Positions 106 to 10,367 are shown, numbered from the stretch's first letter. The stretch is 54,780 nucleotides of DNA from a virus (IMGVR_UViG_3300027769_000037:1-54780), one strand, 5' to 3'. Numbers and translations are program-made. The notes: a model not told the origin generated them from the letters alone.

Positions 106-378
106 TAAATAATATGATATGCCACTTGATTTTCCATCAAACCTCGACATCTCCCAAGTATATAACAGTAAAAGCAATACTTACCCAGGCATAATATGGT
201 AGACGATATAATTTTTTACGGAACTGAATTTTATATAAATCTTCCAACATATAGTTCTGGAACTATTTCCAGAATAGAGGCACAAAGCGAATACTTTGTT
301 CTTAGATTAGCATTACCAGAAAGAATCAGTATATCTTAAATATAAAAAACAAGAGAATATGATATAGTGCTCTAGAAT

Positions 379-406
379 TTGACATTCTAAATAGTAATGG
401 TATAAT
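379..406 (+). promoter_or_regulatory. sigma70-like promoter, leaderless, for dUTPase
   Basis: TTGACA(379-384)-N16-TATAAT(401-406) with TGG extended -10; ATG at 413 is 6 nt after the -10 box; no SD. Confidence 0.8.
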
Positions 407-412
407 TACATT

Positions 413-940
413 ATGAATCTACAAGTATATAAATTACAACCAAATGCGGCGGATATTAATTATTCCACCAAAAATTCAGCTTGTTTTGATATTTCTGCAT
501 ATTTTCATTATCAAAATTCATTTAAAACATATTCTAAAGACAATAAAGAAATTGAAATTTTAGGTATTCAAGATGATAATGGAAATGCATATGTTGAACT
601 TCCCCCAGAATGGAGAATGCTAGTTCCTACTGGACTAATTCTTGATATACCAGAACAACATTGCGTCAAGATTTATCCACGGTCTGGTATTTCTACAAAA
701 AAAGGATTGAATCTAATTAATTGTGTTGGTATAATTGACTCTGATTATGTGCAGCAATTAATGATCCCAGTTTATAATAATTCACAAGAGCGTTTACGAA
801 TATATGCTGGTGATCGTATAGCGCAGGGTGAGATGGTTTATCAACCACAAGTAAAAATTTCTTATATAAACGCAAGACCAGAACAAAAAACTGATCGAAA
901 TGGTGGATTTGGTTCAACTGGTATATCATGGACTCAGTAA
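413..940 (+). CDS. dut: dUTPase (trimeric)
   Basis: Motifs SACFD, PRSG, GIIDSDY, GDRIAQ, R-x-GGFGSTG. Confidence 0.95.
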   Translation: MNLQVYKLQPNAADINYSTKNSACFDISAYFHYQNSFKTYSKDNKEIEILGIQDDNGNAYVELPPEWRMLVPTGLILDIPEQHCVKIYPRSGISTKKGLNLINCVGIIDSDYVQQLMIPVYNNSQERLRIYAGDRIAQGEMVYQPQVKISYINARPEQKTDRNGGFGSTGISWTQ

Positions 941-2217
941 AAGATTTTATACACAATCATGCAGAATTTCATACTCTTATTCCAAATCTTTCTGAAGATG
1001 CTTGGAAAATATTAAATTCTAATTATTCCAAAGAAGAAATAAAAAAAGGATTGGCCGAATACATTATAGATGCATGTCCTTTATTTCCATTTAGAATAAT
1101 ATCAGAAGAAACTGTAAGGGAGAAATTTGTTTCTCTTCGCAGGGAAAATATATATTCATTTATTTCATATCCAAATAAACAAGATGTTGTTGAAAAATAT
1201 AACGACTACAAATATCCATATAAACAATATGGATTAGGATTGATAGAATTTGGACATTACTATAATGATATAAGTAACTATTTTCAACAAGAAAATAGGA
1301 TGGCTTGCCCATCCTATGGGTTTCCTTCTCCAATCGAAATATGGAAAGACAAAAATCTCTTGGAAAAGATGAATTGGATTTTTTGGAGAATGGGAACAAC
1401 AACTATAAATGCAACAAGTATTCGCGGATCGTTTAGACTTGGAGCATATGTTGCAACTCAATTTAAACCCCATGTTGCCAAAGTAATATATGATTATAAT
1501 AATAGCGAAATTATTTTAGATTTTAGCATGGGATGGGGAGATAGATTGGCTGGATTTTATACTTCCAGATCTTCTAAATATTATGGATGTGATCCCAATC
1601 CAAATACATTTAAAGTTTATAAGGACCAGTGTATTGCCTATGAAAAATATTTAGGATGTAATAATCCTATTATTATTCAAACAAAAGATAGATTTGAAAT
1701 AAAGGGAGTAAAACATTGCGTGATAATGAATCTTCCGGCCGAAGATATTGATTGGAAATCTGAAACAGGCGAAAGGGGAGTTGATTGTATATTTACATCT
1801 CCTCCTTATTTTTCCACTGAAATATACAACAAGGGCGGAGAAAAACAAGAAAATCAGTCATGGAGCAGGTATCCAGAATATGAAAACTGGAGAGATAAGT
1901 TTTTATTTCCGGTGTTATCTAAAACTTTTGAAGTTTTATCTGATACCGGATTTATGGCTATTAATATTATGGACCCAACAGTAAATCGTATTCGTCACAG
2001 AACTTGTGATGAAATGGTTGACTATGTTACAAAAGATTTAAATGGTATTTTTTATGGTCAATTGGGAATGAGAATAAAACAACGACCAAAGATTTTAAGT
2101 AAAAATGAATTAAAGAAACATTTATCATCTGATTTTATTGAAAATATTTGGTGTTTTGGGAAATGTGATTTAAATTTTAAGACAGAGCCTAATACTCTAG
2201 AAAGCGTTTTATTATGA
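928..2217 (+). CDS. DNA amino-methyltransferase (N4-C/N6-A type)
   Basis: SAM-binding LDFSMGWG..GCDPN and catalytic FTSPPY motifs. Confidence 0.85.
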   Translation: MDSVKDFIHNHAEFHTLIPNLSEDAWKILNSNYSKEEIKKGLAEYIIDACPLFPFRIISEETVREKFVSLRRENIYSFISYPNKQDVVEKYNDYKYPYKQYGLGLIEFGHYYNDISNYFQQENRMACPSYGFPSPIEIWKDKNLLEKMNWIFWRMGTTTINATSIRGSFRLGAYVATQFKPHVAKVIYDYNNSEIILDFSMGWGDRLAGFYTSRSSKYYGCDPNPNTFKVYKDQCIAYEKYLGCNNPIIIQTKDRFEIKGVKHCVIMNLPAEDIDWKSETGERGVDCIFTSPPYFSTEIYNKGGEKQENQSWSRYPEYENWRDKFLFPVLSKTFEVLSDTGFMAINIMDPTVNRIRHRTCDEMVDYVTKDLNGIFYGQLGMRIKQRPKILSKNELKKHLSSDFIENIWCFGKCDLNFKTEPNTLESVLL

Positions 2218-2528
2218 CAAAAGAAGAATTATTTGAAATGCATATAAAAATGTGTAATGATGCTTTGACTTTGATGAAAAAGAAAAATGCAGATTATGCC
2301 GGAAGTGGAGATGGCAATCCTTTTGCTAATTTTAAAAGAGCAGAATCAATGGGAATTTGCACCACCGAGCAGGCATTTTTAGTCAGAATTATTGATAAAA
2401 TATCTAGACTATCTTCTTATTCGTCAAATGGTAAACTTATTGTGGAAGATGAAACAGTTCACGACACATTAATTGATATGATTAATTATTGTGTTTTATT
2501 GTCTGCTTATTTGGAGGATAAACAATGA
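2214..2528 (+). CDS. nucleotide-modification-associated domain protein (DUF1599/Nmad-like, all-alpha)
   Basis: KKNADYA...NPFANF...DKISRL...ETVHDTLIDMINY pattern. Confidence 0.7.
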   Translation: MTKEELFEMHIKMCNDALTLMKKKNADYAGSGDGNPFANFKRAESMGICTTEQAFLVRIIDKISRLSSYSSNGKLIVEDETVHDTLIDMINYCVLLSAYLEDKQ

Positions 2529-3343
2529 ACATCATTGCTTATACTATAAATAGTCCAATGCAAATTAATTTGCCAAGTAAGAAAAGAGATTGGATGGATA
2601 AGACTCCAAATTCTTTTGCCTATAGATGTTTACCATTAACCATAGCAAATGGATATGGGTGGAATATATTAAATCCTTTTAAGTTTAGTGCAAAGTGGAA
2701 TGGTGGTATGAGTATAAATGATGTTGAGATAAATGAACCAACAAAATATAATTTTGTACAAAGTCACTTTGGTTCTGGTATAATAACCTTTAATATCGGT
2801 TTTTTATTAAAAACAGATGAAGGTGTTAATATTTACGCAAAAGGTCCTGCTAATAATCCAAAAAGAGGAATAAGTGCATTAGAGGGTATAATAGAAACTG
2901 ATTGGTTGCCTTATACTTTTACTATGAATTGGAAAATAACAGAACCAAACTATGAAATAGTATTTGAGCAAGATGAACCTATTTGTACATTTTTCCCAAT
3001 AGAACGAGGTTTCTTAGAACAACATAATCCAGAAATAAGAAGTATTTCTGAAAATGAAAAATTAAATAAAGATCTTTCTGAATGGGGAAGGCATAGAGAG
3101 CAACACTCAAGACGATGTTTTTTGGATAATGTCGAAGATCGTGGAATAAAGCATTATTTGAGGGGAGAATATCCAGATGGGCAAAAAGCAAAAGAGCATC
3201 AGGTAAATGTTACGGCAAAGCCATTTAATATAATTACTAAGTATGATAAACCATATTCTGCCTGGCCTGTGTTTTCTACAAAGATAAAAGAATCTAAAGA
3301 TAGTCCGTGTTACGATAATTGTTGTCTTGAAAGTTACAAATGA
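2525..3343 (+). CDS. DUF6065-like conserved protein
   Basis: RDWMD.T...FAYRCLPLTIAN.YGW and GIIETDWLPYTFTMNW patterns. Confidence 0.7.
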   Translation: MNIIAYTINSPMQINLPSKKRDWMDKTPNSFAYRCLPLTIANGYGWNILNPFKFSAKWNGGMSINDVEINEPTKYNFVQSHFGSGIITFNIGFLLKTDEGVNIYAKGPANNPKRGISALEGIIETDWLPYTFTMNWKITEPNYEIVFEQDEPICTFFPIERGFLEQHNPEIRSISENEKLNKDLSEWGRHREQHSRRCFLDNVEDRGIKHYLRGEYPDGQKAKEHQVNVTAKPFNIITKYDKPYSAWPVFSTKIKESKDSPCYDNCCLESYK

Positions 3344-4809
3344 AATTTTATACAAATGTATATGCTTACGGCAATAAAATACTTGTTAGATATTATGATA
3401 ATGGAGATAAGAGACAGGACGAAAAATATTTCGAACCGTCTTTATTTGTTTCTTCTACTAAACCTGCAAAATTTAAAAGCATTTATAATAAACATCTAAC
3501 TGAAATGAAATTTTCAAATAGAGAAGAATACAATGAATTTATTGAACAATATTCAAATATAAATGGATTTGAAATACACGGTGAAATTGGAGTAGAATAT
3601 CAATATATTAGAAAATATTATGAAAAGTGTGAATCTGATATTTCAAAACTTGATATTCTCTATTTGGATATTGAGACTACTTGTGAAGATGGGTTTCCAA
3701 ACATTGAAGACCCAGAAGAACAAGTTATTGCCATAACAGTTAAAAGAAAAAATAAAACTCCAGTAGTTTTTTGTCTTGGTGAATATTCTGGCAATGAAGA
3801 TATCCGAAAATATTCAGATGAAACTAAACTTTTATCTGATTTTGTTTCTTATATTTCTGATGATTATCCTGATATAATTACTGGTTGGAGTGTTAGATTT
3901 TTTGATATCCCATATCTGTATAATCGTATTGTTAGGTTGTTTGGAGTTAAATACGCAAAGAGACTTTCACCTTGGAATATCATTAGAGATAAAACAATAA
4001 ACAGAAATGGTTATGATGTAAAGGTTTATGATCTTATTGGTATTTCTACACTAGATTATTATGAATTGTATAAAACATTTACATATACTAATCAGGAATC
4101 TTATAAATTAGATCATATTGCTTCCATAGAGCTAGGTGAGCGAAAACTTTCCTATGATGAATATGAAACTATTCAAGATTTTTATAAGGGGAATTTTCAA
4201 AAGTTTATTGAGTATAATATACAAGATGTTTTACTAGTTGAGAAACTAGAGAATAAACTAAAGTTAATGGAACTTGCAATTTCTTTAGCTTATTCTGCTG
4301 GTGTTAATTACAATGATGTTTTTTCTCAAGTAAAAACATGGGATGTTATTATTTACAACTTTTTAATGGATAAAGGTATAATTATCCCACCAAAGAAAAA
4401 ATCATCAAAGGACGAGAAATATGCAGGAGCATATGTAAAAGAACCTTTAGTCGGTTTGCATAATTGGGTTCTTAGTTTTGATTTAAATTCTCTTTATCCT
4501 CATTTAATCATGCAATATAATATTTCACCAGAAACTGCCGTAATCCAAGGCCTTCGTGGAACCGTAACGCCAGATGGTGTTCTAACAAATGGTTCGGTAA
4601 CTATGAAAAGTTTAATTGAAAATAAGGAAAAGAATCTTTCTACGGCGGCAAATGGCACAACATATCAAAAAGATATTCGAGGATTTTTGCCTGAATTGAT
4701 GGATAAGATGTATCAAGATCGTAAACTTTTTAAAAATAAAATGATTGAGGCAAAAAAACAATTAGAGAAAGTAAATCTTGAAATTAAAAACAGAGGACTT
4801 GACTCTTAA
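3340..4809 (+). CDS. 43A: family B DNA polymerase, N-terminal subunit (gp43A: exonuclease, palm motif A, first fingers helix)
   Basis: ExoI DIET, ExoII GWSVRFFD, ExoIII YNIQD, GAYVKEP, motif A DLNSLYP. Ends after MYQDRKLFKNKM; motifs B and C are absent. Confidence 0.93.
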   Translation: MKFYTNVYAYGNKILVRYYDNGDKRQDEKYFEPSLFVSSTKPAKFKSIYNKHLTEMKFSNREEYNEFIEQYSNINGFEIHGEIGVEYQYIRKYYEKCESDISKLDILYLDIETTCEDGFPNIEDPEEQVIAITVKRKNKTPVVFCLGEYSGNEDIRKYSDETKLLSDFVSYISDDYPDIITGWSVRFFDIPYLYNRIVRLFGVKYAKRLSPWNIIRDKTINRNGYDVKVYDLIGISTLDYYELYKTFTYTNQESYKLDHIASIELGERKLSYDEYETIQDFYKGNFQKFIEYNIQDVLLVEKLENKLKLMELAISLAYSAGVNYNDVFSQVKTWDVIIYNFLMDKGIIIPPKKKSSKDEKYAGAYVKEPLVGLHNWVLSFDLNSLYPHLIMQYNISPETAVIQGLRGTVTPDGVLTNGSVTMKSLIENKEKNLSTAANGTTYQKDIRGFLPELMDKMYQDRKLFKNKMIEAKKQLEKVNLEIKNRGLDS

Positions 4810-4826
4810 TTGTTGAATGATATAAT
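4799..4826 (+). promoter_or_regulatory. sigma70-like leaderless promoter overlapping the end of 43A
   Basis: TTGACT-N16-TATAAT, TGA extended -10; ATG at 4833 is 6 nt downstream. Confidence 0.8.
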
Positions 4827-4832
4827 ACTTAA

Positions 4833-5387
4833 ATGGAGACAAGAAATGTCATCGACCACTACCACTACTGGAAGCACGAAGATATCCTCGCGGACCTCGA
4901 CTCTAAAAGGAACAATTTTACGATACTGTGCAGTAATTTATATAACGATTTCAATATCGCTACAGTCATTCGTAATGCGAATGCGTTCTTGGCTTCAAAG
5001 GTAATTGTTTATGGTTCTAAACAATATGATCGTAGAGGCACCGTAGGTACTCATCGTTATACCCATTTTACCTATTGCAAAACAACAATAGACCTAATTG
5101 ATGAAATGAAGAATATTTTTAATTCTCATACGAGTGCAAAGCTCATTGGAATTGATAATATTTCTACTGCTCAACCAATTGAAACTTACCAATGGGATGC
5201 CAATACACATTATATTATTGCTCTTGGTCAAGAGCAAGTAGGTCTTCCAAAGGAAATTATTCAAATGTGTGCTGAGTTGCTTTATATTAAGCAATATGGT
5301 TCTGTTCGCAGCCTAAATGTAGGAACGGCATCTGGAATCGTAATGTATGATTATTGCTCAAAGGTTTTAAACAATGTCACTGCCTGA
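4833..5387 (+). CDS. SpoU/TrmH-TrmL family (SPOUT) RNA 2'-O-methyltransferase
   Basis: SPOUT motifs N-IATVIRNANAF, LGQEQVGL, YGSVRSLNVGTASGIVMY. Confidence 0.88.
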   Translation: METRNVIDHYHYWKHEDILADLDSKRNNFTILCSNLYNDFNIATVIRNANAFLASKVIVYGSKQYDRRGTVGTHRYTHFTYCKTTIDLIDEMKNIFNSHTSAKLIGIDNISTAQPIETYQWDANTHYIIALGQEQVGLPKEIIQMCAELLYIKQYGSVRSLNVGTASGIVMYDYCSKVLNNVTA

Positions 5388-5565
5388 AGAAGAAAAACAC
5401 GCTCTGGAACAAACTAAAAACTTTCTGTTTGATTTGCTCGATCCAAAGAAAACTCCCAGAGTGCCGCGTGATGTAAGGAAACGAGCAAGCAGATGTTTAA
5501 AACATTATCCAATAGTCATTGACTTTTTTATAGAACGATGTATAATGGATAAACAAGACAACTGA
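5374..5565 (+). CDS. small conserved phage protein
   Basis: 63-aa ORF with PKKTPRVPRDVRKRASRCLKHYP, a motif recurrent in phage hypotheticals. Confidence 0.6.
   Translation: MSLPEEEKHALEQTKNFLFDLLDPKKTPRVPRDVRKRASRCLKHYPIVIDFFIERCIMDKQDN
5519..5546 (+). promoter_or_regulatory. sigma70-like promoter for tRNA cluster
   Basis: TTGACT-N16-TATAAT, 24 nt upstream of tRNA-Leu(TAA). Confidence 0.7.
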
Positions 5566-5570
5566 ACAAC

Positions 5571-5654
5571 GGGATTGTGGTGTAATTGGCAGCCACCTTA
5601 GACTTAAAATCTAATGCCTACAAAGGCGTGCGGGTTCGAGTCCCGCCAATCCCA
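5571..5654 (+). tRNA. tRNA-Leu(TAA)
   Basis: Acceptor GGGATTG/CAATCCC, anticodon arm TTAGA-CTTAAAA-TCTAA, long variable arm, T-loop TTCGAGT. Confidence 0.93.
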
Positions 5655-5659
5655 TTAAA

Positions 5660-5701
5660 AAGGCAATTCGTATATATAGTAATAGGAGTACGAATTGCCT
5701 T
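5660..5701 (+). promoter_or_regulatory. 13-bp hairpin over the HNH translation start region, with late-promoter-like TATATATA in its loop
   Basis: AAGGCAATTCGTA(5660-5672)/TACGAATTGCCTT(5689-5701); GGAG at 5685-5688; ATG at 5702. Confidence 0.75.
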
Positions 5702-6232
5702 ATGAAGACTTATGGTAGGTTAAATAAAATCGGTAAAGACAAATTACAAGAGTTAGCAAACAATTGTAAAAGTTTAGCAGGGTTAATAGAACAATTGGGT
5801 TATAGTAAAACTGCTGGTGGAACATTTTCTGTTGTTAAAAAGTATCTACAACTATATCAAATAGATACATCTCATTGGACAGGTAGAGCATGGAATAAAG
5901 GTCAGCAATTAAAAGATTGGTCGAAATATGCCAATCATCAATATTGTAAAAAACATTTAATATCAGAAAGAACTCATAGATGTGAGTTGTGTGGATTGAC
6001 AGAATGGCATGAATCTCGTATTCCTTTGGAGATTCACCACAAAGACGGTAACAGAACAAATAATGAATACGATAACTTACAATTACTTTGTCCAAACTGT
6101 CATTCATTAACAGATACTTGGAAAGGTAGAAATAAAAAACACCAAAGTGGTGAAATGGCATACACGATTGATTCAAAATCAATTGCCGAGAGGCGTGTGG
6201 GTTCAAGTCCCACCTTTGGTATTCCTTTGTAG
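5702..6232 (+). CDS. HNH (free-standing homing) endonuclease
   Basis: CELC...LEIHHKDGNRTNNEYDNLQLLCPNCH. Confidence 0.9.
   Translation: MKTYGRLNKIGKDKLQELANNCKSLAGLIEQLGYSKTAGGTFSVVKKYLQLYQIDTSHWTGRAWNKGQQLKDWSKYANHQYCKKHLISERTHRCELCGLTEWHESRIPLEIHHKDGNRTNNEYDNLQLLCPNCHSLTDTWKGRNKKHQSGEMAYTIDSKSIAERRVGSSPTFGIPL
6141..6221 (+). tRNA. tRNA-Leu(CAA)
   Basis: Acceptor ACCAAAG/CTTTGGT, anticodon arm ATTGA-TTCAAAA-TCAAT, long variable arm, GTGGG-TTCAAGT-CCCAC. Confidence 0.92.
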
Positions 6233-6293
6233 TGAAATGGTATCACAGAAGATTTTGGTTCTTTTTTTCTTGGTTCGAATCCAAGCAAAGGAA
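6223..6293 (+). tRNA. tRNA-Gln(TTG)
   Basis: Acceptor TCCTTTG/CAAAGGA, anticodon arm GAAGA-TTTTGGT-TCTTT, CTTGG-TTCGAAT-CCAAG. Confidence 0.88.
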
Positions 6294-6336
6294 TTATCAA
6301 TTCATAAATTAAAAAACTGTTGACATTAAGTTAATT

Positions 6337-6407
6337 GTGGGTATGATGTAGTGGTAACATAAGAGTTTTCCAAACTTTTCTCACGGGTTCGAATCCCGTT
6401 ACCCGCT
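6337..6407 (+). tRNA. tRNA-Gly(TCC)
   Basis: Acceptor GTGGGTA/TACCCGC, anticodon arm AGAGT-TTTCCAA-ACTTT, ACGGG-TTCGAAT-CCCGT. Confidence 0.9.
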
Positions 6408-6424
6408 TTATTAGGATTTTTACT

Positions 6425-6982
6425 ATGGCCTTCAACGCAAAAACTATCAAAAATTTTATTCAAAACGATCAATGTCAACTTCTTGTTAATTATGCAAAAC
6501 AAACTGATAAGTGGGAAAAAACAAGCGATCCGTTCTGGGATGGTCGGGTTCTTCGACCATATCTTGTACCAGATCCTATTAAAAATACTCTAAGAACAAT
6601 TCTATTTTCAATTAAAAAAACAATAGAATTGGAATATAATCTTGATCAAGAAATATTTCCTGACACCTATGATATGATTAGATGGTTTCCGGGTATGAGT
6701 CAAGAACCACATTGTGATGATATGTCTGGAACATCTGCTCATAATCATTTTGGTCATAGATATTTTGGATGTGTTCTTTATCTAAATGAAGATTATGAAG
6801 GTGGTCATACTTTTTATCCAAAACAAAATTTTGATATCACTCCTGAGATTGGTAAACTAGCTATTCATTTGGGCGATTGTGAACATATGCATGGTGTGAC
6901 CGAAATTAAAAACAATACAAGATATACGATAGCTAGTTTTTGGACTTTTGATAAAACTAGGTCAAGTTTATATAATTTTTAA
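6425..6982 (+). CDS. 2OG-Fe(II) oxygenase (prolyl-hydroxylase-like)
   Basis: HxD (PHCDD), YLNEDYEGG, HGVTEI...RYT. Confidence 0.88.
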   Translation: MAFNAKTIKNFIQNDQCQLLVNYAKQTDKWEKTSDPFWDGRVLRPYLVPDPIKNTLRTILFSIKKTIELEYNLDQEIFPDTYDMIRWFPGMSQEPHCDDMSGTSAHNHFGHRYFGCVLYLNEDYEGGHTFYPKQNFDITPEIGKLAIHLGDCEHMHGVTEIKNNTRYTIASFWTFDKTRSSLYNF

Positions 6983-6988
6983 TAATAT

Positions 6989-7061
6989 TCTCTGATAGCT
7001 CAGCAGGTAGAGCGGCGAGCTGTTAACTCGCATGTCACTGGTTCGAATCCAGTTCGGAGAG
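6989..7061 (+). tRNA. tRNA-Asn(GTT)
   Basis: Acceptor TCTCTGA/TCGGAGA, GCGAG-CTGTTAA-CTCGC, ACTGG-TTCGAAT-CCAGT. Confidence 0.93.
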
Positions 7062-7064
7062 TTT

Positions 7065-7136
7065 GCCATCTTAGCTCAGCGGTAGAGCCATGCTTTTGTA
7101 AAGCATAGGTCGTGAGTTCGAATCTCACAGGTGGCT
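7065..7136 (+). tRNA. tRNA-Thr(TGT)
   Basis: Acceptor GCCATCT/AGGTGGC, ATGCT-TTTGTAA-AGCAT, GTGAG-TTCGAAT-CTCAC. Confidence 0.93.
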
Positions 7137-7138
7137 TT

Positions 7139-7420
7139 ATGAAATCCAAAATTAAATTAAAAATTAACAATAAAGATTGGATAATTAAATTAGTCCATCC
7201 TAAATATTTACCAGAGTCGTATGGAGAGTGTGATGATGCTTATGATGTGGATAATAAAAAACCACAGATTTGGATAAGGAATGATCTATCTAAAAAAGAT
7301 ACTGTTACTACTCTTATACATGAAATCTTACATGCATCGCGCCCTGAGTTATGTGAGGAAGCTGTTGACTACACTTCAACTGTGATTGGTAATGCTTTGG
7401 AAAAAATGGAGTATATATGA
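7139..7420 (+). CDS. small HExxH metallopeptidase-like protein
   Basis: TLIHEILHA. Start moved to ATG 7139 because the listed GTG start lies inside tRNA-Thr. Confidence 0.65.
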   Translation: MKSKIKLKINNKDWIIKLVHPKYLPESYGECDDAYDVDNKKPQIWIRNDLSKKDTVTTLIHEILHASRPELCEEAVDYTSTVIGNALEKMEYI

Positions 7421-7614
7421 ACAATTATATTGCTGGTCTAGGTTATAAAGAAGGATATCAAGATAGAATGTTGGGTAAACCAAATCGTTATGTAATTCGT
7501 ATAGAAGACACACCGTTTTGGGAAGAATATAATGTAGGATACTCAGAAGCTTCTCGCCGTATTCTTGAAGATGCCCGTAGCAAAATAGATACTCGTGATT
7601 TTCTTGTAGAATGA
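7417..7614 (+). CDS. hypothetical protein
   Basis: ATGA-coupled to both neighbours; GGAG SD upstream. Confidence 0.6.
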   Translation: MNNYIAGLGYKEGYQDRMLGKPNRYVIRIEDTPFWEEYNVGYSEASRRILEDARSKIDTRDFLVE

Positions 7615-8162
7615 TTTACTTTATAAGCGACACACATTTTAATCATAATAATATTCTCAAATATACTAATAGGCATCTTCTCTATGAGAATGTTGCTGAG
7701 ATGAATAAATCTCTAATTGAGAATATAAATTCTGTTGTGACCAAGAAAGATACCTTGTATCATCTTGGAGATTTTTGTATGGATAAAAATATTCATTGGC
7801 TAAAGAAAACAAATGAAATTCTCGATCATCTTAAATGTAAGAATATTCATTTGATTCTCGGAAACCATGATCCAAAACCAACTTCAGAATATCTCAAGAA
7901 AGCAAAGTTCAAGAGTGTAAATACATATTTTGAACTTAATTATAAGAAACATGGTATTTGTCTTTCTCATTATCCACTCCATACTTGGAACAAATCATGT
8001 CCAATAAACCTACATGGTCATTGTCATGGAAAGCTAGGATTTATAACTTCACCTCGAAAAGATGATTTCATGCGATTTGATATAGGGGTTGACTCAGATT
8101 CTTTGAACTATAAACCTATCGCAATAGAAAGACTTCTTGAACTTTACAATCTACACAAGTAA
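7611..8162 (+). CDS. calcineurin-like metallophosphoesterase
   Basis: DTH, HLGD, GNHD, SHYP, HGHCH motifs. Confidence 0.9.
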   Translation: MIYFISDTHFNHNNILKYTNRHLLYENVAEMNKSLIENINSVVTKKDTLYHLGDFCMDKNIHWLKKTNEILDHLKCKNIHLILGNHDPKPTSEYLKKAKFKSVNTYFELNYKKHGICLSHYPLHTWNKSCPINLHGHCHGKLGFITSPRKDDFMRFDIGVDSDSLNYKPIAIERLLELYNLHK

Positions 8163-8184
8163 TGCTTGTGTAGATTTTTTTATT
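8148..8184 (+). terminator. intrinsic terminator closing the polymerase insert
   Basis: AATCTACACAAG-TAATG-CTTGTGTAGATT followed by a T tract. Confidence 0.75.
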
Positions 8185-8193
8185 TGATAAAAT
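8166..8193 (+). promoter_or_regulatory. leaderless promoter for 43B, overlapping the terminator
   Basis: TTGTGT-N16-TAAAAT with TGA extension; ATG at 8200 is 6 nt downstream, the same geometry as at 413 and 4833. Confidence 0.6.
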
Positions 8194-8199
8194 ATGAAA

Positions 8200-9315
8200 A
8201 TGAACATTGATAATCTGTCTAATGAAGAGCTGCTTCATCTGAAAAAAACACTTGAATATGATATTTCAAAATATCATAACTTTCAACTTGTTAGAAAAAT
8301 TCAATTAAACTCTGCTTACGGTGCAATCGGTAATGAATGGTTTAGATATTATTCTACCGAACTTGCTGAAGCTATCACCTTATCTGGGCAATTATCCATA
8401 CAATGGATTGGCCAGGAGTTGAATAAATATCTCAACAAAGTTATCAAATCAGATGGCGTTGATTATGTGATTGCATCTGACACTGATTCTGTATATCTTT
8501 GTCTTGATGAACTTGTTAAAAAAATATTTCCATCCAATACGGATAAGAAAACTATTGTTGATTTTCTAGACAAATCATCAAACGATTTAATACTACCATT
8601 TATTAAGAAAAAGTTTGAAGAACTTGCAGCAACCATGAATGCTTATGAAAATAAAATGCAGATGGGTAGAGAAATAATTGCAGATAAGGGTATATGGACT
8701 GCTAAAAAAAGATATATGCTGAATGTTTGGGATTCAGAAGGAGTGCGATACACTGAACCTAAATTAAAAATAATGGGTATAGAAACAACTAGAAGTTCTA
8801 CACCAAAGGTTGTAAGAGAAGAATTAGAGAATGTTATTGATATCATATTGAATCGTGACGAGGACTCTTTGATTTCATATGTTGAGGATTTTAAAAGTAG
8901 ATTTATGAAAATGCCAGCAGAATCTATAGCATTTCCTAGATCTGTGAATGGCATGGATAAATATTCAGATCCTTATCAAATATATAAAAAATCAACACCC
9001 ATTGCGGTTAAAGGAGCTTTGATATATAATCATCAAATCTCTAAACTTGGATTAGAGAAAAAATATAGATTGGTGGGTGAGGGTGAAAAAATTAAATATT
9101 TGCATTTAAAGAAACCAAATCCACTTGGTGGAATGAAGGGTGAAGATCAAGTTGTAGCTTTTCCTTCAACTCTTCCAAAAGAATTTAAGTTGGATGGATA
9201 TATTGATTTTAATATGCATTTTGAGAAATCATTTATAGATCCATTATCAACTATCGTGAATGCTATCGGTTGGCAATTAGAAAGAAAAACAACACTTGAG
9301 AGTTTATTTGAATGA
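8200..9315 (+). CDS. 43B: family B DNA polymerase, C-terminal subunit (gp43B: second fingers helix, motifs B/C, thumb, clamp-binding tail)
   Basis: KIQLNSAYGAIGN, ASDTDSVY, KKRY, KIMGIETTRSSTP, C-terminal TLESLF clamp motif. Start at 8194 or 8200. Confidence 0.93.
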   Translation: MNIDNLSNEELLHLKKTLEYDISKYHNFQLVRKIQLNSAYGAIGNEWFRYYSTELAEAITLSGQLSIQWIGQELNKYLNKVIKSDGVDYVIASDTDSVYLCLDELVKKIFPSNTDKKTIVDFLDKSSNDLILPFIKKKFEELAATMNAYENKMQMGREIIADKGIWTAKKRYMLNVWDSEGVRYTEPKLKIMGIETTRSSTPKVVREELENVIDIILNRDEDSLISYVEDFKSRFMKMPAESIAFPRSVNGMDKYSDPYQIYKKSTPIAVKGALIYNHQISKLGLEKKYRLVGEGEKIKYLHLKKPNPLGGMKGEDQVVAFPSTLPKEFKLDGYIDFNMHFEKSFIDPLSTIVNAIGWQLERKTTLESLFE

Positions 9316-9323
9316 GGTAAATT

Positions 9324-10367
9324 ATGTCTGATATTTTAAATTCATTGATTAAAGAATCTGGTAATAAGTATGCGTCTTTGGTTTCGAATGGTCTACCCGG
9401 TAGTGATGTAGAAAAATACATGGATACTGGATGCTATATCTTGAACGGTCTTCTATGTGGGGATATTTATGGAGGCATTCCTGATAATAAAATTATTGCA
9501 TTGGCGGGTGAACAGGCTACTGGAAAAACCTACATCACTATGGGGATTATTGCTAAGTTTTTGAATGATAATCCAGAAGCATTTGTTCTTTATTTTGATT
9601 CTGAACAAGCAGTAACTTCTGAAATGTTTAAGCGTCGAGGAATAGCCCCAGATCGCGTTGCAGTGTTTCCTGTTGGTACTGTGGAAGAGTTTCGCAAACA
9701 AGCAATAACGATTGTCGATAAGTATCTTGAACTTCCAAAAGAAAAACAAAAGAAAATGATGATTGTTCTAGATTCCCTTGGTATGTTATCAACATCAAAG
9801 GAGATGAATGACACTGCCGAAGGGAAGGAAGTTCGTGATATGACACGAGCTCAGGTCATTAAGGCTACTTTCCGTGTTCTCACAGTTAAACTTGGATTTG
9901 CAAAGATTCCAATGCTCCTTACGAATCACACATATGATGTTGTGGGTTCATATGTACCTACAAAAGAAATGGGCGGGGGGACGGGGTTGAAGTATGCCGC
10001 CTCCATCATTGTTTATCTTTCAAAGAAGAAAGACAAAGACTCATCTGGTGAGGTTGTTGGTAATATTATTCATTGCAAACTTTATAAAGGCAGATTTGCA
10101 AAAGAAAATCAGATGGTTGATGTTCGACTTAATTATGAAACTGGACTTGATCCATATTATGGTCTGATTGACTTAGCACTAAAACATGGTATACTTAGTA
10201 AGTCTGGAACTAGAATTGAATTTCCAAATGGAGTAAAGGTATTCGAAAAGAATGTCTATGAGGAACCTGAAAAATATTTTACTAATGATCTCATGGATAA
10301 GATTAATGAAGCTGCCTCAAAGGAATTTAAATATGGTTCTATAGAGGAAACTAATGACGAGCATTGA
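9324..10367 (+). CDS. uvsX: UvsX RecA-like recombinase
   Basis: Walker A AGEQATGKT, LDSLG, GGGTGLKYAAS. Confidence 0.93.
   Translation: MSDILNSLIKESGNKYASLVSNGLPGSDVEKYMDTGCYILNGLLCGDIYGGIPDNKIIALAGEQATGKTYITMGIIAKFLNDNPEAFVLYFDSEQAVTSEMFKRRGIAPDRVAVFPVGTVEEFRKQAITIVDKYLELPKEKQKKMMIVLDSLGMLSTSKEMNDTAEGKEVRDMTRAQVIKATFRVLTVKLGFAKIPMLLTNHTYDVVGSYVPTKEMGGGTGLKYAASIIVYLSKKKDKDSSGEVVGNIIHCKLYKGRFAKENQMVDVRLNYETGLDPYYGLIDLALKHGILSKSGTRIEFPNGVKVFEKNVYEEPEKYFTNDLMDKINEAASKEFKYGSIEETNDEH

Follow-up and report, generated by a model that had tools for sequence, protein, structure and literature searches.

A T4-type DNA polymerase gene divided at the fingers tip around a tRNA-bearing island: a probable two-subunit gp43 in uncultured freshwater phages

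The virus record IMGVR_UViG_3300027769_000037 of IMG/VR, which we analysed over its whole length of 54,780 bases and call here the window (estimated completeness 27%), carries gp43, the family B DNA polymerase of T4-like phages, as two separate genes, 43A and 43B, divided at the tip of the fingers by a gap of 3.4 kb in which tRNA genes and diverse protein genes are lodged. The reading that we hold with good confidence is that of a gp43 made of two subunits that reassociate without any splicing, the gene being split at the fingers tip and the gap occupied by a tRNA-bearing island. Fingers-tip splits of this kind are known already, as is the fact that their gaps may hold kilobases of DNA and endonucleases. 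New, as far as our searches reach, are the size and the age of the clade that has this arrangement, a core of tRNA genes and an RNA methylase in the gap, a promoter in the end of 43A and the exchange of polymerase halves.

Gene 43A (3340..4809; this and the other features listed between 3340 and 9315 lie on the plus strand) encodes a product of 489 amino acids (aa) with the N-terminal domain, the 3'-5' exonuclease, palm motif A and the first fingers helix, and ends in ...EIKNRGLDS*. Gene 43B (8194..9315) encodes the second fingers helix with motif B, palm motif C, the KKRY motif and the thumb, in 373 aa when read from 8194, where it opens with MKMNIDNLSNEELL.... Of 20 split relatives, 13 have a product that starts at the position of the second ATG, equivalent to 8200, which makes this the likelier start of 43B. 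Pfam recognizes exo1 and positions 23-153 of the DNA_pol_B profile in 43A, and positions 148-345 of the same profile in 43B, the two halves matching the gp43 chains of RB69 and T4 with expectation values (E) of 1e-72 and 1e-67. The alignment of 43A to RB69 gp43 reaches residue 505, and that of 43B begins at residue 555 of RB69 (546 of T4); this places the break between the two cistrons at the fingers tip, in the loop that joins the two fingers helices, after motif A (DLNSLYPH) and before motif B (KIQLNSAYG). With exonuclease, motifs A, B and C and KKRY all present, the pair belongs to the T4-type family B polymerases. The closest cultured relatives are cyanomyoviruses (46-57% identity). The first-pass annotation, drawn from the sequence alone, had described just such a split with 43B resuming about 3.4 kb further on, and the two open reading frames (ORFs), the Pfam matches and the RB69/T4 alignments agree with it.

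The catalytic motifs DIE, DLNSLYP, KxxxNSAYG, DTDS and KKRY are invariant across 29 sequences of 43A and 30 of 43B, and the ratio of nonsynonymous to synonymous substitution (dN/dS) in four pairs lies between 0.08 and 0.13 for 43A and between 0.04 and 0.14 for 43B; by these measures both halves are under strong purifying selection. A decaying pseudogene, with some other polymerase replicating the genome, might be entertained for a record that contains only 27% of the genome. It is made very improbable by the dN/dS range of 0.04-0.14, by catalytic residues that stay invariant across a clade in which 43A diverges down to about 57% identity, and by the T4-type replication module in which the genes stand, with uvsX, a gp41-type helicase and a primase recognized by Pfam 3' of 43B; there is, moreover, no other PolB match within the 27%-complete record.

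The metagenomic origin of the record raises the suspicion of an assembly chimera, and mis-assembly at the junctions was also a concern of the first-pass annotation. Contigs from four sequencing runs, two of them RNA libraries, were compared with the window. Those of run X6 (DNA, from another study) span 3340-5600 and 7108-8291, and those of run X7 (DNA, again from another study) span 4693-5250 and 7794-8467, all with 0 differences. Both junctions are thus bridged by DNA contigs of two other studies, which excludes mis-assembly there; 31 other contigs carry both halves with an insert at the same site, and a chimera accordingly has next to no likelihood left. No contig joining 4809 to 8194 was present in the four runs, which is weak evidence, given that contigs can miss rare forms. 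The contigs of run X9, an RNA library, leave 4540-4739 and 8140-8739 uncovered and are evidence of nothing in this respect.

Could the halves nevertheless be rejoined into a single chain, either through a split intein or through an intron, very large or spliced in trans, that is removed from the RNA? Genes of family B polymerases do contain introns and inteins in some cases, phage 25 having a group I intron in its 43B, and metagenomes have yielded intein-fractured genes with endonucleases between the parts. Here, an Rfam search (cmscan, E<=1, positions 3000-9600) matched no intron family and returned only six tRNAs and one sub-threshold chance match, so that a polymerase gene interrupted by a group I or group II intron was rejected as a candidate, there being no Rfam intron RNA structure between the halves. 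An intein-fractured gene of the type described by Dassa et al. (2009) was likewise rejected: split-intein blocks are absent at the ends of the break, where 43A closes with ...KNRGLDS* and 43B opens with MNIDNLS..., and the combined fingers segment of the split clade, 79-86 aa, is too short to leave room for intein halves. The stop of 43A and the start ATG of 43B are conserved in all split members, the gap carries promoters, a terminator, tRNA and protein genes, and a joined form is missing from the four runs. Hence, rejoining by splicing retains only a slight probability, and the first-pass annotation was right in seeing neither intein nor intron.

To place the window among its relatives, viral contigs were scanned with 43B, which found 250, and the best 80 of these 250 were kept as environmental loci (numbered with the prefix L). 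Among these best 80, the polymerase is split in 49, contiguous in 29 and undetermined in 2; the split loci comprise 31 with both halves and the insert on the contig and 18 in which 43B is an ORF of its own behind non-polymerase DNA. In trees of concatenated 43A and 43B the split loci are monophyletic, with a FastTree SH-like support of 1.0 for 19 tips and of 0.865 when the early-branching L083 is included, and a fast IQ-TREE search with 38 of 53 taxa (15 near-duplicates dropped) gives the same clade SH-aLRT values of 98.8 and 100. Its sister is a contiguous clade. To judge from these trees, the break is old and common to a whole clade of uncultured freshwater T4-like phages. Outside this clade, Synechococcus phage ACG-2014f, also split, is nested among contiguous cyanophages, and the split Aeromonas phages 44RR and 25 and Acinetobacter phage 133 branch elsewhere; split lineages being thus scattered on the tree, the same site has been broken several times. 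The polymerases of HTVC008M and T4 are contiguous, gp43 of T4 forming one ORF of 901 aa.

Two loci of the survey have peculiarities of their own. In L056 the polymerase is contiguous, and positions 1660-2110 are an internal duplication of the fingers segment with Ns, probably an assembly artefact. In L043 (6205-8577) the polymerase consists of three parts: a Mom-family gene (7514-8266, Pfam 1.2e-27) interrupts 43A after motif A, and a piece of 103 aa that follows it (8266-8577) supplies the first fingers helix. The Rfam intron search of this interruption was empty, and a tRNA of L043 called by ARAGORN and missed by Rfam is doubtful.

Split polymerases of cultured phages offer the closest comparison; the split gp43A/gp43B of Aeromonas and Acinetobacter phages were reportedly described by Petrov et al. 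in 2006 and 2010. In the available parts of the literature such splits are described for Aeromonas phages 44RR2.8t, 25, 31 and 65 and for Acinetobacter phage 133 (PMC3061061, PMC2988022, PMC2839356, PMC2677866), so that the precedent invoked by the first-pass annotation holds. Phages 44RR, 25 and 133 have the break at the same place as the window (about q487/q5 in the alignment), with a 43A tail of the ...RRG type, and gaps of the Aeromonas and Acinetobacter splits measure between tens of bases and 3 kb and can contain a homing endonuclease, as in the window clade; they differ in having arisen independently on the tree. The gap of phage 133 contains eight ORFs, including a phosphatase (tk.4) unrelated to the phosphoesterase of the window, which was tried as its homologue and rejected (E 1.2). 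ACG-2014f, whose GenBank entry lists two coding sequences named 'DNA polymerase', is split at the same site, its 43A ending in ...EMKRRGVL*, but its origin is separate and its gap of about 0.5 kb contains two small ORFs and no tRNA. What sets the window clade apart from the known splits is that it forms a large environmental clade and that its gap holds a conserved tRNA cluster together with a SpoU methylase. No tRNA is present in the published gaps of 44RR, 25 and 133, and a literature search that left out most subscription journals and supplements found no description of tRNA genes between gp43 halves.

Measured from GFLP to NSAYG, the fingers segment has 79-86 aa in the split clade (the two pieces summed), 57-71 in the contiguous sister clade, 59 in cyanophages and 95-100 in T4, 44RR and 133. 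On sequence comparison, then, the fingers helices exceed those of the nearest contiguous kin in length but do not exceed those of T4, and the split ends have only 12-27 residues more than contiguous relatives. In 43A a hydrophobic stripe in a/d positions runs with 3-4 spacing to the end of the chain (F464, M468, A471, L475, V478, L482, then R485-G486-L487); 43B has its counterpart in L13, L16, L20, I24 and Y27, with the same spacing, and these positions are conserved in 19 rows of the split clade for 43A and in 20 for 43B. The extra heptad-like helices claimed for both ends by the first-pass annotation therefore stand with respect to the nearest contiguous relatives, with a stripe that reaches both ends, and fall away with respect to T4, 44RR and 133.

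Prediction of the 43A+43B complex gave an interface score (ipSAE) of 0.81 in each of three runs, with 0.00 for the best control, a pass that is to be expected because the structures of the contiguous gp43 of RB69 and T4 are solved, and which shows likeness rather than binding of this pair. The runs agree in at least 90% of their contacts (a set of about 390-400 residue pairs), with a partner pLDDT of at least 84. The predicted interfaces comprise one in the palm, 43A 361-397 with 43B 92-105 and 147-172, and one in the fingers, 43A 450-487 with 43B 5-45. In the prediction, then, the shared palm would contribute most of the binding of the halves and the paired fingers helices a part of it; of the reassembly through a coiled coil that had been proposed earlier, the contact between the paired helices is retained and the leading role is not. 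Two systems serve as biochemical precedents. In phage 25 the two gp43 subunits, split naturally at the fingers tip, co-purify and are active in DNA polymerization, according to the available text of PMC2988022, and Pfu polymerase, another enzyme of family B, reassembles when cut near the fingers tip and has full activity with wild-type kinetics, although this enzyme is archaeal and its split laboratory-made, bicistronic with overlapping stop and start (PMC3061061, as far as its available text goes).

The gap of the window begins with a SpoU/TrmH-like SPOUT RNA 2'-O-methyltransferase (4833..5387, 184 aa; Pfam PF00588, 8.6e-21, 75 bits against a cut-off of 29.7) and a small ORF of 63 aa (5374..5565) of the BPSL0761 family (NCBIfam 3.3e-10, above cut-off), which separates it from tRNA-Leu(UAA) (5571..5654, of the type with a long variable arm). 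There follow a free-standing HNH endonuclease (5702..6232; Pfam HNH/HNH_3, PHROG 10822 at 3e-33), whose 3' end overlaps tRNA-Leu(CAA) (6141..6221), then tRNA-Gln(UUG) (6222..6294) and tRNA-Gly(UCC) (6337..6407), a 2-oxoglutarate (2OG)-Fe(II) oxygenase of 185 aa recognized by Pfam and PHROG (6425..6982, variable cargo), tRNA-Asn(GUU) (6988..7062) and tRNA-Thr(UGU) (7065..7136). The last genes are two ORFs with no assigned function, of 102 aa (7112..7420, present also in L005) and 65 aa (7417..7614, in 11 of 33 gaps), and a Pfam metallophosphoesterase of 183 aa (7611..8162), found in 11 of 33 gaps and mostly as the last or next-to-last gene before 43B. The tRNAs were called by ARAGORN and Rfam; the six have Rfam scores of 56-68 bits, and all six fall in the gap.

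The methylase belongs to its family by its SpoU_methylase domain; it has no PHROG match, and its Atlas clusters, mostly viral, are a lead only. Its assignment as an equivalog of TrmH, RlmB, TrmL or TrmJ was rejected, the NCBIfam scores being far below the cut-offs (RlmB 52.7 bits against 160, TrmH 39.2 against 227, TrmL 31 against 190.6), and so was its identification with TrmL, the wobble 2'-O-methylase of tRNA-Leu CAA/UAA, for which the score is below those for RlmB and TrmH. The endonuclease has an HNH motif and is polymorphic in presence and absence between close relatives, which makes it a candidate homing endonuclease. In T4, too, a tRNA cluster has a homing endonuclease, SegB, lodged among its genes; that cluster is not known to lie inside the polymerase locus, and its endonuclease is of the GIY-YIG family rather than HNH.

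A census of 33 gaps (the window, ACG-2014f and 31 environmental loci, with near-duplicates among them) shows sizes from 178 to 6339 nucleotides (nt). At least one tRNA is present in 31 gaps and a tRNA with anticodon UAA in 29; SpoU is found in 24, the phosphoesterase in 11, HNH in 4 and the 2OG oxygenase in 3, and further cargo includes DUF6065, DUF5856, a GlcNAc transferase, another metallophosphatase and many unknown genes. The UAA tRNAs fall into two structural types according to whether the variable region is long or short, and their prevalence therefore does not reflect one inherited gene. In the gaps of L009, L012, L017, L019, L022, L023, L028, L029, L030 and L039, the UAA tRNAs are short (73-76 nt) and have no long variable arm, unlike canonical tRNA-Leu. 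The DUF6065 gene, which in the window lies at 2525-3343 with its stop overlapping the start of 43A, is found inside the 43A-43B gap in L039 (6601-7398), L054 and L064.

How such an island changes is seen by comparison with L005, the closest relative, with a protein identity of 85-87% and tRNA blocks that are 94-98% identical in DNA. Between these blocks, protein cassettes have been inserted, deleted or replaced: L005 lacks HNH, its two tRNA-Leu genes abutting where the window carries that gene, the slot of the oxygenase is occupied by tRNA-Ser and tRNA-Tyr, and two ORFs of L005 are absent from the window. The first-pass annotation had called the island translation-related, which is true of its tRNAs and SpoU/TrmH-like methylase; the remainder is ordinary variable phage cargo that differs even in L005. 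Synonymous divergence (dS) between the window and L005 is 1.16 for 43A, 0.56 for SpoU and 2.03 for 43B. SpoU has a dN/dS of 0.03. The two halves of the polymerase do not always share their relatives: L033 groups with L009, L012 and L019 in the 43A tree and with L039 in the 43B tree, each with support of 1.0, and these conflicting partners imply that recombination has occurred across the gap at least once. The sister group of the window and L005 also changes between the two trees, with weak support.

The expression signals of the locus are placed with some regularity. A sigma70-type promoter, TTGACT-N16-(TG)TATAAT (4799..4826), has its -35 in the last codons of 43A and its -10 ending 6 nt before the SpoU ATG. 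On a score out of 12 for the -35/-10 pair, a promoter at this place reaches at least 9 in 15 of 20 loci, 14 of them with 11-12 and most with the extended -10 TG; the -35 hexamer either takes in the TGA stop or coincides with the final codons of 43A (where TTGACA encodes Leu-Thr or Leu-Asp), and in 13 loci the -10 ends 6-8 nt before the next ATG, which is the SpoU start. At the other end, a terminator-like 13-bp hairpin with a T-run, found by hairpin scan (8148..8186), closes the island and is followed by the candidate promoter of 43B, TTGTGT-N16-TAAAAT (8166..8193; 8/12), 6 nt before the ATG at 8200; the separate signals that the first-pass annotation had given to 43B are thereby confirmed in the form of a hairpin and a weak promoter-like pair. 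In 11 of 20 loci, a pair 6-7 nt before the 43B ATG scores at least 9/12, a distance and score that precede 1.4% of all ATGs of the window. Neither the SpoU start nor that of 43B has a Shine-Dalgarno sequence, and messages from the two promoters would be nearly leaderless. Other members couple 43B to the upstream ORF or use a Shine-Dalgarno sequence with a GTG start. Along the whole window, 3 of 46 long plus-strand ORFs (413, 4833 and 52749) lack a Shine-Dalgarno and are preceded by a near-consensus -35/-10 pair that ends 6-9 nt from the ATG, which suggests nearly leaderless early messages in this phage.

This layout recalls the promoter-early stem-loop (PeSL) cassettes of the hyperplastic regions of T4-type genomes, in which small variable genes are bordered by strong sigma70-like promoters and by stem-loops; these elements have been proposed to bring about the shuffling of the cassettes, and PeSL-like sequences have been noted between 43A and 43B of 44RR and 25 (both in the available part of PMC2839356). 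The window has a terminator hairpin and then a promoter before 43B, and a consensus promoter after 43A; the hairpin (8148-8186) overlaps the 8/12 promoter (8166-8193), and the promoter at 4799-4826 is without a stem-loop. It differs in that the -10 lies 6-7 nt from an ATG without Shine-Dalgarno and the -35 inside coding sequence, and it can be set beside the PeSLs of RB49 and phi1 by layout only.

We propose that 43A and 43B would be translated separately and would associate, without RNA or protein splicing, through the palm and the antiparallel fingers helices. Once in a two-cistron state, the space between the genes may behave as a hyperplastic region: the strong, early-type promoter in the end of 43A would drive the tRNA cluster and the RNA methylase, other cassettes and free-standing homing endonucleases would come and go between conserved tRNA genes, and 43B would be re-started from its own promoter or coupled to the last gene of the island. 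Recombination in the gap would then let polymerase halves be exchanged between phages.

Is the position of the island itself an adaptation? The tRNAs could punctuate one early transcript for cleavage by RNase P and RNase Z, tie the tRNA supply to subunit stoichiometry and be kept by linkage to an essential gene. For this speak L030 and L031, with gaps among the smallest (184 nt), in which a tRNA begins 5 nt after the 43A stop and is followed by about 100 nt; as there is no promoter in the gap or before 43B, 43A, tRNA and 43B must be co-transcribed. In L047 and L054 a tRNA likewise directly follows the 43A stop with no promoter there, though one stands before 43B, and the tRNA set matches the A-ending codons that the phage prefers to use (TTA in 28% of Leu, CAA in 69% of Gln and AAT in 76% of Asn codons). 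On the other side, most members have promoters of their own for the island and for 43B, and gaps without tRNA exist in L083, ACG-2014f and phages 44RR, 25 and 133. The gap also holds only part of the tRNAs of a phage (6 of 11, 3 of 5 and 2 of 9 in three long split contigs), and a contiguous sister contig keeps all of its 5 tRNAs more than 100 kb from gp43. We consider adaptive linkage rather unlikely, and the traffic of homing endonucleases and promoter cassettes into a permissive intercistronic site accounts for the data at least as well. The idea of the first-pass annotation that the split site is a landing pad keeps its support in gaps that vary from 0.18 to 6.3 kb across a monophyletic clade; the gap is not the only tRNA locus of these phages.

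Two related loci are of interest for their endonucleases. In L083 the gap is taken up by a GIY-YIG gene (4930-5634) whose product shares 41% identity (E 2e-40) with the phage 25 homing endonuclease encoded between 43A and 43B, and L052, of another sub-lineage, has a copy (823-1527), 47% identical, directly before 43B. In both, a short, stop-initiated insertion follows ...AYGAIG after motif B, at the presumed target of the endonuclease: 9 nt in L083 (5745-5756; GGT TAA CTA GGT AAT) and 5 nt in L052 (1647-1655; GGT TAG GC AAC). Such insertions occur at only 2 of 84 sites in the loci examined, the site of the window being intact, and the Gly codon after each is so placed that re-pairing would restore ...G-NQYF. 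The group I intron of phage 25 lies at the same post-motif-B site; all three endonuclease carriers thus have this site interrupted, against 0 of 82 non-carrier sites. The polymerases of phage 25 and the other carriers share only about 30-40% identity, against 41-47% for the GIY-YIG proteins. In T4, the MobA endonuclease is paired with the bypass insert of gene 60, and the insert protects against self-cleavage, according to the available part of bioRxiv 10.1101/2022.08.31.505936. L083 and L052 resemble that system in having a free-standing endonuclease by a split essential gene, a stop-initiated insert and matching Gly codons for take-off and landing; they differ in the length of the insert (5 and 9 nt vs 50 nt), in the gene, polymerase instead of topoisomerase, and in being known here from sequence alone. 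By this analogy the two insertions are candidate endonuclease-immunity inserts that would be read by ribosomal hopping.

A wider reading, which we offer tentatively and regard as possible rather than probable, takes the fingers-tip gap of gp43 as an exchange site serviced by homing endonucleases across very distant T4-like lineages: endonuclease traffic would have created the split and would spread it, the tRNAs would be anchors for recombination, and the halves exchangeable modules. The two insertions could then be readable only by a short ribosomal hop between matching Gly codons.

Several points weigh against the two-subunit polymerase with its separately expressed island. That 43A and 43B associate and are active is something that we infer from the model, whose pass was expected from likeness to the solved gp43 structures, and the calibration of the score (58 of 80 solved complexes reach it, as do 2 of 110 mismatched pairs) counts only roughly here, as the prediction was fed with our own alignments. 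The 27% completeness of the record leaves room for a second polymerase elsewhere in the genome; the near-universal UAA tRNA, with its two structural types, is not a single inherited gene; and the RNA-library contigs may be DNA carry-over and carry no transcript ends. With regard to expression, the 43B promoter of the window itself scores only 8/12, its hairpin at 8148-8186, a good terminator by form, is not conserved in relatives, and the 20 loci scored for promoters include many close relatives, which overstates their independence. Promoter-like sites between 3000 and 9600 are not above shuffles (39 vs 36.9 +/- 6.1), nor are terminators, so that the region-wide counts of both were discarded as evidence and weight is given only to conservation at specific positions.

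Upstream of the polymerase module, at 928-2528, the window encodes a protein of 429 aa with an N6/N4 DNA methylase domain and a DUF1599 'nucleotide modification associated' protein, genes that hint at DNA modification.

For the biology of T4-like phages, these results mean that split T4-type polymerases are not confined to a few cultured phages of Aeromonas and Acinetobacter but occur across a large and diverse freshwater clade. They indicate that an intercistronic break in an essential enzyme can become a long-lived site for gene cargo with promoters of its own, one of them in the coding end of 43A, and they provide evidence, at the level of sequence, that a replicative polymerase can be composed of halves that differ in their history. 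The core of tRNAs and methylase offers a system in which to ask why phages carry tRNAs and whether they modify them. Finally, the mini-insertions linked to endonucleases, if they are decoded by hopping, would constitute a second natural pairing of an endonuclease with translational bypass.

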